In this document: positions 28,201-31,200 of the stretch, one piece after another
Numbering within the stretch: the first letter of the stretch is position 1
Layout: the number at the start of each line of letters is the position of its first letter
NCBI RefSeq assembly: GCF_030013205.1
Contig: NZ_CP122648.1
DNA: 64,000 nucleotides
From: Escherichia coli
GTDB taxonomy: Bacteria > Pseudomonadota > Gammaproteobacteria > Enterobacterales > Enterobacteriaceae
Strand: one strand, 5' to 3'
Made by a program: the position numbers

Positions 28201-31200
28201 GCAAGGCGCTGCGCCTGAGATTCACTCAACGTACCCAGCGTCATACACGCCTCCAGGCCCATCGCTTTTACCCCCTGCACCATCTGCTCCAGATAGGGCA
28301 TGTCGCGTTCGTGGGGATTCTTCCACGCCGCGCCCATACAGAAACGTGTCGATCCCGCCGCTTTCGCTTTTCGCGCCGACTCCAGCACCTGTTCAACTTC
28401 CATCAACCGCTCGGCTTCCAGCCCGGTTTTATAGCGCGAGCTTTGCGGGCAATATTTGCAATCTTCCGGACAAGCTCCGGTCTTAATTGACAGCAACGTG
28501 CTGACCTGCACCTGACGTGGATCGAAATGCTGACGATGCACCTGCTGCGCTTCAAACAGCAGATCCAGCAACGGTTTTTCAAATAATTCTGTGACTTGCG
28601 ACAATGTCCAGCGTGGGCGGTGAGCCATGGGGCTTCTCCAAAACGTGTTTTTTGTTGTTAATTCGGTGTAGACTCGTAAACCTAAATCTTTTCAATTTGG
28701 TTTACAAGTCGATTATGACAACGGACGATCTTGCCTTTGACCAACGCCATATCTGGCACCCCTACACATCCATGACCTCCCCGCTGCCGGTTTATCCGGT
28801 GGCGAGCGCCGAAGGTTGCGAGCTAATTTTGTCTGACGGCAGACGCCTGGTTGACGGTATGTCGTCCTGGTGGGCGGCGATCCACGGTTACAATCACCCG
28901 CAGCTTAATGCGGCGATGAAGTCGCAAATTGATGCCATGTCGCATGTGATGTTTGGCGGTATCACTCATGCGCCAGCCATTGAGCTGTGCCGCAAACTGG
29001 TGGCGATGACGCCGCAACCGCTGGAATGCGTTTTTCTCGCGGACTCCGGCTCCGTAGCGGTAGAAGTGGCGATGAAAATGGCGTTGCAGTACTGGCAGGC
29101 CAAAGGCGAAGCGCGCCAGCGTTTTCTGACCTTCCGCAATGGTTATCATGGCGATACCTTTGGCGCGATGTCGGTGTGCGATCCGGACAACTCAATGCAC
29201 AGCCTGTGGAAAGGCTATCTGCCAGAAAACTTGTTTGCTCCCGCCCCGCAAAGCCGCATGGATGGTGAATGGGATGAGCGCGATATGGTGGGCTTTGCCC
29301 GCCTGATGGCGGCGCATCGTCATGAAATCGCGGCGGTGATCATTGAACCGATTGTCCAGGGCGCAGGCGGGATGCGCATCTACCATCCGGAATGGTTAAA
29401 ACGAATCCGCAAAATGTGCGATCGCGAAGGTATCTTGCTGATTGCCGACGAGATCGCCACCGGATTTGGTCGTACTGGCAAACTGTTTGCCTGTGAACAT
29501 GCAGATATCGCGCCGGACATTTTGTGCCTCGGTAAAGCCTTAACCGGCGGTACAATGCCCCTTTCCGCCACACTCACCACGCGCGAGGTTGCGGAAACCA
29601 TCAGTAACGGCGAAGCCGGCTGCTTTATGCATGGGCCAACTTTTATGGGCAATCCGCTGGCCTGCGCAGCAGCAAACGCCAGCCTGGCGATTCTTGAATC
29701 TGGCGACTGGCAACATCAGGTGGCGGCTATTGAAGCGCAGCTACGCGAGCAACTTGCCCCCGCCTGTGACGCCGAAATGGTTGCCGATGTGCGCGTACTG
29801 GGGGCAATCGGTGTGGTCGAAACCACTCGTCCGGTGAATATGGCAGCGCTGCAAAAATTCTTTGTCGAACAGGGTGTCTGGATCCGGCCTTTTGGCAAAC
29901 TGATTTACCTGATGCCGCCCTATATTATTCTCCCGCAACAGTTGCAGCGTCTGACCGCAGCGGTTAATCGTGCGGTGCAGGATGAAACATTTTTTTGCCA
30001 ATAACGGGAAGTCAGCATGAGGGTTTCTGGCTACACTTTCTGCAAACTAGAAAGGAGGGTTCATGAAACTCATCAGTAATGATCTGCGCGATGGCGATAA
30101 GTTGCCGCATCGTCATGTCTTTAACGGCATGGGTTACGATGGCGATAATATTTCACCGCATCTGGCGTGGGATGATGTTCCTGCGGGAACGAAAAGTTTT
30201 GTTGTCACCTGCTTTGACCCGGACGCGCCAACCGGCTCCGGCTGGTGGCACTGGGTCGTTGTTAACTTACCCGCTGATACCCGCGTATTACCGCAAGGGT
30301 TTGGCTCTGGTCTGGTAGCAATGCCAGACGGCGTTTTGCAGACGCGTACCGACTTTGGTAAAGCCGGATACGGTGGCGCAGCGCCGCCGAAAGGCGAAAC
30401 CCATCGCTACATTTTTACCGTTCACGCGCTGGATGTAGAACGTATTGATGTCGATGAAGGTGCCAGCGGCGCGATGGTCGGGTTTAACGTCCATTTCCAC
30501 TCTCTGGCAAGCGCCTCGATTACTGCGATGTTTAGTTAATCACTCTGCCAGATGGCGCTATGCCATCTGGTATCACTTAAAGGTATTAAAAACAACTTTT
30601 TGTCTTTTTACCTTCCCGTTTCGCTCAAGTTAGTATAAAAAGGCTGAACAAGAAACAGAAAACACTGTAAATATCAATATGTTATGAAAGATTTAGTCTA
30701 AATAATAGACTGCATAATGCTACAAAACACAACATATCCAGTCACTATGAATCAACTACTTAGATGGTATTAGTGACCTGAGACAGAGCATTAGCGCAAG
30801 GTGATTTTTTGTCCTCTTGCGCTAATTTTTTGCCACACAACAGTCACATCTTCAAAAAATATGCAAAGCTTAGGGTTAATCGGCGGATGATTTTTGTCCA
30901 TTCATTTTGCGCGGGTAAGTTATGTGGTGGGTTATCGGCATCCTTTCCGTGGTTGTCATCGTGGCGACGCTTGTCGTTAGGTCACATCTGCAGGATATTG
31001 ATAATGACTATTAGCCATAAGTGGTTTCAACGCTTTGGGTAATGTAGTAGGCCACCCAGTTACCTGACTCATTAAATCTGTAAGCACAATTCAAACGAAT
31101 CGGACCGATATTATTGAATGTGCTGAGCGTTGTCCCACCAATACCATTTTTAACCAAAACTGTTGGGTTAGCAGATGATGACCCGGCTATCTTTATGTAA

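Follow-up and report, generated by a model that had tools for sequence, protein, structure and literature searches.

The attR site of an integrated element in Escherichia coli ETEC4079 carries a single-base substitution within its C core-type Int half-site. The explanation that we regard as very probable is that this is a genuine, derived and inherited C-site transition in a P22-like prophage with a lambda int/xis/att module, and that the change would be moot in the remnant that ETEC4079 now carries. Its flanking genes place the prophage, in a porcine E. coli clone, at attB-lambda, the ybhB/ybhC boundary between bio and gal. The chromosome of ETEC4079 (pig faeces, Belgium; NZ_CP122643.1) matches the window, by which we mean the whole 64-kb stretch of DNA that was analysed, with 0 mismatches over 40,381 bp.

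A search of the window for the lambda common core, allowing at most two mismatches, returned two matches, compared with a chance expectation of 0.17. On the plus strand of the window, the match at 50976-50990 has the canonical sequence (TTAGTATAAAAAAGC), whereas the match at 30630-30644 reads TTAGTATAAAAAGGC. In lambda orientation the latter core is GCCTTTTTATACTAA and the canonical core GCTTTTTTATACTAA; with the flank included, GTTCAG-C-C-TTTTTATACTAACTTGAGCG stands where the canonical site has GTTCAG-C-T-TTTTTATACTAA. Using the attL/attR orientation convention of the structural work (PMC4880445), both sites in the window read opposite to the lambda convention. At 30630 the elements run B' (on the ybhB side)-O-P arm, which identifies attR as seen from the opposite strand, and at 50976 they run P'-O-B (on the ybhC side), which identifies attL, adjoining int. 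Bacterial sequence to the left of 30630 is contiguous with the attB flanks of empty E. coli sites, aligned up to the core, and the two empty-site loci examined have the arrangement ybhB-core-ybhC. The parts of the two sites are as follows:

30626-30632, plus strand: attR B' core-type half-site CAAGTTA, bacterial, beside ybhB; matches empty attB sites
30630-30644, minus strand: attR 15-bp common core, variant (TTAGTATAAAAAGGC on the plus strand, GCCTTTTTATACTAA in lambda orientation)
30633-30639, minus strand: attR 7-bp overlap, GTATAAA = TTTATAC (overlap as defined in PMC2831311 and by established lambda knowledge)
30640-30646, minus strand: attR C core-type Int half-site, mutated, AAGGCTG = CAGCCTT, compared with CAGCTTT
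30642, minus strand: variant base, G on the plus strand and C in lambda orientation (ancestral A and T, respectively)
30645-30800, minus strand: attR P arm, 95.7% identical to phages PDP110P1/P2 and 86% to lambda
30734-30753: P2 arm-type Int site, contains CAGTCACTAT (position transferred, with that of P1, from the features 'int 1' and 'int 2' of the lambda record)
30766-30785: P1 arm-type Int site, contains AGGTCACTAA (position transferred as for P2)
50896-50975, minus strand: attL P' arm with arm-type sites P'1-P'3, TTTTGACTGATAGTGACCT; aligned part identical to lambda
50972-50978, minus strand: attL C' half-site CAACTTA
50976-50990, minus strand: attL 15-bp core, canonical, TTAGTATAAAAAAGC
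50979-50985, minus strand: attL overlap
50986-50992, minus strand: attL B half-site, AAAGCAG = CTGCTTT

The variant base at 30642 is G rather than A on the plus strand, a T>C change in lambda orientation. It is the third base pair beyond the overlap and position 5 of the 7-bp C half-site; numbering the 15-bp core from -7 to +7 places it at -5, while published papers number it differently. The overlaps of the two sites match, with GTATAAA at both 30633-30639 and 50979-50985. In an otherwise complete site, the C half-site is therefore the part that departs from the canonical form, reading CAGCCTT instead of CAGCTTT. The T at the mutated position is common to all four lambda half-sites as read here: CAGCTTT (C), CTGCTTT (B), CAACTTA (C') and CAAGTTA (B'). 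An alignment with the attP sites of lambda, 434 and PDP110 placed the P1 and P2 arm-type sites in the attR P arm at lambda spacing. Apart from one base, the 30630 site agrees with a lambda attR in all the sequence features tested. The preliminary description had claimed a canonical core at attL and a differing one at attR, with the change outside the 7-bp overlap and within a core-type Int binding site; both sequences are as described, the flanks bear out both labels, and the binding site is the C half-site.

To determine how widely the substitution occurs, a 55-nt query centred on the G was used in a megablast search in which every 28-nt seed was forced to include the G. Among 5,426 complete E. 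coli genomes the substitution was found in one, ETEC4079 itself; the remaining matches to the query (four to five genomes) were one-base deletions in the same A run, leaving A5. The canonical 55-mer, spanning the B'-O-P junction, had a perfect match in 14 genomes, all from swine (K_EC180, O139:H1 W13-16 and P15-25, EC556/571/581, ETEC4067/68/70/71/75, 6333/34 and 1701). The attP sites of lambda, 434 and PDP110P1/P2, the nearest free phages aligned, were all canonical, with CAGCTTT at C. Because the 14 sibling junctions and the nearest free-phage attP sites are canonical, the distribution indicates that the G is derived and arose after integration. Replacement of the arm by Int-mediated recombination between attP and attR was considered as a source of the G and rejected, because the P arm shows no other difference from the canonical siblings. 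If excised, a phage of this lineage would take the altered C site with it into attP. An attP bearing the G gave 0 matches in IMG/VR and 0 in INPHARED, and in JGI metagenomes the sole match was an unrelated chance 20-mer. This absence would fit either impaired excision or merely a rare phage lineage and, since the lineage is rare, is weak evidence.

ETEC4079 and ETEC4075 differ at about five positions over about 44 kb of chromosomal flank. Compared with ETEC4075, K_EC180 and W13-16, three differences private to ETEC4079 fall within 1.8 kb: 29558 in bioA, 30642 in attR and 31390 in the tailspike gene. This cluster of three private SNPs around attR initially looked suspicious. Two of the private differences alter proteins (BioA and tailspike) and were used for exact-protein look-ups, which located the private BioA variant in three assemblies and that of the tailspike in five. 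Three further assemblies with the G at attR were identified: GCA_030346235.1 (JAUAMS01), which also has 31390A and 29558C; GCA_053634275.1 (DBKRDG01), which has 31390A and the ancestral 29558A; and GCA_025674445.1 (JAOVTF01), in which both 31390 and 29558 are ancestral. The SNP states are thus nested, with the attR G in four of four assemblies including ETEC4079, the tailspike 31390A in three and the bioA 29558C in two. The assemblies also differ in structure: JAUAMS has a breakpoint at window position 49555/49556, in DBKRDG the internal deletions are different and the junction of Rz and xis has about 770 bp extra, and JAOVTF keeps gp4 and gp10. From these differing SNP and deletion states we infer that the four assemblies are independent. 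Because the SNP states are nested across structurally different assemblies, they are as expected under vertical inheritance and incompatible with an assembly artefact, and indicate that the attR G is a real, inherited mutation. The preliminary description had proposed a comparison with the attR of other strains, and this comparison divides them: the 14 swine siblings are canonical and the three further assemblies carry the G.

The distance from att to att in ETEC4079 is 20.3 kb, with P22-type late genes on the minus strand. The features of the element that bear on its capacity to move are:

31011-49483, minus strand: remnant late region, P22-like (Lederbergvirus-type), from PGAP names, Pfam and identity to phages; holds tailspike, ant, arc, mnt, gp16, gp20, gp7, gp14, needle, coat, scaffold, portal, TerL, TerS, DUF2560, gp49-like, Rz1 and an Rz fragment
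41778-41780: deletion junction 2, 2,078 bp missing compared with the gene-complete relative
49479-49483: deletion junction 1, truncated Rz joined to the 3' end of a small ORF upstream of xis
49586-49605, plus strand: intrinsic-terminator-like hairpin with T run; 31 bp separate its end from the start codon of xis downstream
49636-49854, plus strand: xis, 72 aa, 69/72 identical to lambda Xis
49832-50902, plus strand: int, 356 aa, 351/356 identical to lambda Int (J02459.1)

Membership in the P22-like group is borne out by the portal, coat, gp7/gp20/gp16, needle, tailspike head-binding domain and ant/arc/mnt (immI) genes, and the Pfam matches comprised P22_portal, P22_CoatProtein, P22_gp7, Inj_translocase, Phage_P22_gp16, Phage_tail_NK, Head_binding, Arc and P22_AR_N. 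The needle of ETEC4079 is knobbed, and of Rz the C-terminal part is left. In the parts shared, the late genes are 95-97% identical to those of CUS-3, Sf101, Huey and HK620. Within the window, immunity C, N, replication, nin, Q, holin, lysozyme, gp4 and gp10 are absent, so that the gene set falls short of a complete genome. At junction 1 the truncated Rz abuts the last ~150 bp before xis, and the loss runs from lysozyme/holin through Q, nin, replication, cII-cro-cI and N to the pL operon; among the 5,426 complete genomes, the junction at 49479-49483 was found in ETEC4079 alone. Junction 2 removed a 62-aa ORF, gp4, gp10 and the 5' end of the needle gene, and a protein look-up with the resulting needle fusion protein returned no exact match on record. 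Taken together, the gene content and junctions indicate that in ETEC4079 20.3 kb are left of a P22-like prophage of ~40 kb.

The order of events can be read from gene-complete relatives, with the layout of intact P22-like prophages, obtained through a portal-protein look-up, as a reference. The JAOVTF contig with the attR G carries the full morphogenesis set together with Rz/Rz1, lysozyme, holin, Q, nin, DnaB, a replication gene, CII and Cro. Across 9,947 bp, this early region matches JAOUZF010000011.1 at 100% identity; the JAOUZF contig runs on through cI, N, cIII, kil, the recombination genes, xis, int, attL and ybhC and has one mismatch to the window in 10,376 bp. The parent was thus a gene-complete P22-like prophage of ~40 kb with a lambda integration module. 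Because JAOVTF carries the attR G together with a complete gene set, the G predates the decay: it is older than the deletions and was already present on the gene-complete prophage. Sibling remnants with a canonical attR are found in ETEC4075 (13.5 kb, with an IS2), K_EC180 (17.7 kb) and W13-16 (16.4 kb). Since these siblings are equally stranded, immobility in the swine clone is independent of the SNP.

The preliminary description had stated that int and xis are apparently intact and had asked whether the element can still excise. Both genes are intact as ORFs: Int is full length and all six catalytic residues (R212, K235, H308, R311, H333 and Y342) are present, and the xis allele of ETEC4079 carries V56I and R65G compared with sibling strains. 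The facts stated about the site likewise hold, whereas the framing of the element as competent does not, as it is a 20.3 kb remnant that lacks the early region. In lambda, pL together with N antitermination expresses xis and int, and the CII-dependent pI expresses int alone. The window contains neither the N nor the CII gene, both of which the gene-complete relatives have. Because the entire early region is missing, pL too has probably been lost in ETEC4079. A simple consensus scan of 48900-51050 detected no sigma70-like promoter, which leaves low-level int/xis transcription possible. On its gene content, the remnant is not expected to produce Int and Xis unaided, and excision would be conceivable only with both proteins supplied in trans. 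If it were excised in this way, the remnant, lacking the replication genes, most lysis genes and the head-completion genes, would be predicted neither to replicate nor to be packaged into stable heads, and so not to propagate. Because the early region has been lost and the siblings with a canonical attR are equally stranded, the SNP in ETEC4079 would be at most a secondary obstacle to excision.

In the excisive-complex structure of Landy and Van Duyne, attR has the order C-O-B', and both recombination pathways start with top-strand exchange at C and B (PMC4880445). The complex contains three arm-core bridges, P'1-C', P'2-B and P2-B', and the NTD of the Int at C is unplaced in the model (PMC4880445). 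Sequence identity is needed in the 7-bp overlap only (PMC4880445, PMC2831311), and work on attH found that core-site substitutions cut Int recombination several-fold without abolishing it (PMC2831311). We found no published mutant or experiment for this C-site substitution in the literature, including in searches for CAACTTNNT and for secondary att sites.

We propose that an inherited T>C transition (A>G on the plus strand) arose after integration on a gene-complete prophage and would then have been carried along during decay. With the overlap intact, the homology required for strand exchange would be kept, and strand swapping and ligation should be unaffected. The sole plausible effect would be a weaker or altered binding of the catalytic and core-binding domains of Int at C. 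The top strand of attR would be cut at C in the first strand exchange of excision, and the Int at C, which would start the reaction on attR, seems to depend on core and tetramer contacts alone. Because C starts excision without an arm bridge, the T is conserved in four half-sites and the attH substitutions provide a precedent, a quantitative reduction of excision, and not a block, would be expected, and a modest reduction is plausible. As the T is common to all four core half-sites, the effect of the SNP could exceed the one assumed here.

Three other readings of the origin and role of the substitution were weighed. A sequencing or assembly error, with an A6-G boundary miscalled as A5-GG in ETEC4079, would suit a change that sits at a homopolymer boundary and leaves the length unaltered; moreover, the A5 one-base deletions in four to five other genomes mark the run as error-prone or mutation-prone, and among RefSeq complete genomes the substitution occurs in ETEC4079 alone. 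However, the G is present in three other assemblies that differ in linked SNPs and in deletion/rearrangement structure, and the SNP states are phylogenetically nested. Such an error, which the preliminary description had named as grounds for dismissing the difference, was rejected through these G-bearing assemblies, reached by way of the private BioA and tailspike variants, and we regard it as extremely improbable. Our initial hypothesis was that the variant had been inherited from the phage, the infecting attP already reading CAGCCTT, so that attR and attL would differ through the phage origin of C and the bacterial origin of B. It is true that attR takes its C half-site from the phage, and identity is required in the overlap only (PMC4880445, PMC2831311). 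Nevertheless, the 14 siblings, with the same chromosomal alleles and an identical P-arm junction, have a canonical C site, as does the nearest free-phage attP, and a G in an attP context is absent from the viral, phage and metagenome sequences searched. The hypothesis was rejected on the canonical state of the nearest attP and the 14 sibling attR sites, and is very unlikely.

A further reading accepts a mutation on the prophage and gives it a causal role, such that the C-site change weakened the binding of the Int that has no arm bridge, substantially impaired excision and locked a complete prophage in place, and the early and lytic deletions followed stepwise or were favoured. Several observations are compatible with this sequence of events: the G predates the deletions, as it stands beside a gene-complete prophage in JAOVTF; the mutated position is a T in all four lambda core half-sites; the C site holds the unbridged Int that initiates excision; and searches of IMG/VR, INPHARED and JGI metagenomes yielded no excised attP bearing the G. 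Against this, the sisters with a canonical attR (ETEC4075, K_EC180 and W13-16, at the sizes given above) are as decayed, and because these lineages decayed equally, decay needs no mutation. There is also no sign of selection, and a neutral SNP hitch-hiking in the clone fits the data equally well. A causal role is thus unlikely; if true, it would represent a natural immobilisation of a prophage that started at an att core-type half-site, and not at int/xis or with a deletion.

On the preferred reading, that of a derived and inherited transition carried along during decay, the point difference is an ordinary lineage-marking SNP that adds an allele to an already well-characterised site, and whether the ETEC4079 remnant can move does not hinge on it. 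The value of the SNP would be modest, as a naturally occurring variant of the C core-type half-site of lambda for which controls are at hand: siblings that share the prophage and flanks and keep a canonical attR, and a relative whose mutated attR stands beside a gene-complete prophage. Such strains would permit a clean in vivo measure of the share of C sequence recognition in excision, a contribution that the structural work leaves open because, of the four Int protomers, the one at C alone was given no arm bridge. Independent, parallel decay by deletion of one prophage inside a single clone is likewise seen at this locus.

The closest known system is the lambda attR with Int, Xis and IHF. The element shares with it the chromosomal site (ybhB/bio-ybhC/gal), the overlap, the B', B and C' half-sites, the P' arm and the presence of the P1 and P2 sites, and its Int and Xis are 99% and 96% identical to those of lambda. 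It differs in the C half-site (CAGCCTT versus CAGCTTT), in the P arm, a natural variant that is closer to PDP110P1/P2 (95.7% identity) than to lambda (86%), and in the joining of the att module to P22-like morphogenesis genes. P22-like phages with a lambda att module (vB_EcoP-720R6, Huey and JEP4) have the same late gene set and order as ETEC4079, and Huey and JEP4 also have a P arm in common with its element. With CUS-3, Sf101 and HK620 as late-gene comparators, the order is TerS, TerL, portal, scaffold, coat, needle, gp14, gp7, gp20, gp16, mnt/arc/ant and tailspike. Unlike these phages, ETEC4079 keeps 20.3 kb, with the early region and gp4/gp10 deleted and Rz truncated. In this it resembles the cryptic lambdoid prophages of E. 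coli, which are integrated remnants with an intact integrase gene and without immunity, replication and lysis functions, and of which close strains hold different deletion derivatives; in contrast to them, it has a point mutation in one att half-site, with the att sites and int/xis otherwise intact. The saf mutations of lambda offer a further parallel, as they too are single-base changes inside the 15-bp common core. They reportedly lie inside the 7-bp overlap and break homology with the partner site (work ascribed to Weisberg et al. in 1983 and Bauer et al. in 1985), whereas the attR change in ETEC4079 lies outside the overlap and keeps that homology.

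Over the 25.6 kb that open the window, ETEC4079 and its swine sibling ETEC4075 differed solely at two SNP positions and in the length of one T run (T7/T8). These differences were grouped within ~325 bp (window 4321-4645), where they adjoin the gene for a type III effector together with a small hypothetical ORF.

Within the core run of the attachment site, A5 in place of A6 (TTAGTATAAAAAGC) was observed in four complete RefSeq genomes. The missing base lies at the edge of the overlap and the B-or-C half-site, and these one-base deletions are either homopolymer sequencing errors or true attB/attR length variants.

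Carriers of the A5 one-base deletion
attR: ET665 (L007)
empty attB: L008, L009 and H86

A distinct allele of xis (window 49636-49854) was found in ETEC4079 and the relatives sharing its attR G at 30642. Compared with ETEC4075 and K_EC180, another swine sibling, this allele carries five nucleotide differences within 155 bp (49674, 49710, 49716, 49801 and 49828), changing the Xis protein at two residues (V56I and R65G); R65 falls within the C-terminal tail, through which Xis contacts Int. Because the SNPs are clustered, the sequence suggests a recombination tract rather than point mutation.

In one of these relatives, GCA_030346235.1, divergence from ETEC4079 starts at window 49555/49556. The late-gene side of this break lies on a 945-kb contig and runs on into unrelated DNA. 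The side bearing xis, int, attL and ybhC is found on a separate contig, where ~6 kb of unknown genes stand ahead of it, with ybgA (DUF1722), phr and dtpD beyond these. The pattern appears to reflect a large inversion or other rearrangement, one breakpoint of which falls immediately upstream of xis; if true, attL and attR of that isolate would be placed so as to preclude excision.

Among members of one swine E. coli clone, the prophage at the lambda attB site was observed to have decayed along at least five separate deletion paths, and in ETEC4075 the path also involved IS2 insertions. All deletion variants kept tailspike-ant-arc-mnt and xis-int.

Genomes showing different deletion paths
ETEC4075
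K_EC180
W13-16
DBKRDG (L018/L037)
DAESCN (L020)

Relative to JAOVTF, ETEC4079 lacks 2,078 bp at window 41778-41780, with loss of gp4, gp10 and the needle N-terminus; the ORF left by this deletion is a needle-knob of 316 aa, in frame and immediately after the coat gene. At window 36057-38321 (minus strand), PGAP gives just a partial 'lytic transglycosylase' pseudogene. An unbroken 754-aa ORF occupies this interval and a gene of the same length in DBKRDG01 is recorded as Phage_P22_gp16. Calling the ORF a pseudogene appears to be an artefact of annotation.

Finally, the ETEC4079 allele of the gp49-like/Rz1/Rz segment (window 48672-49483) differs from that of the gene-complete relative, a ~40 kb P22-like prophage pieced from JAOVTF/JAOUZF contigs, and for this reason the remnant is not a simple deletion derivative. 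Deletion in ETEC4079 was probably accompanied by mosaic exchange with another lambdoid prophage. Here gp49 is 126 aa in ETEC4079 compared with 124 aa in the gene-complete relative, Rz is of a 145-aa type rather than 155 aa, and the relative's counterpart of the segment contains a KilA-N gene.
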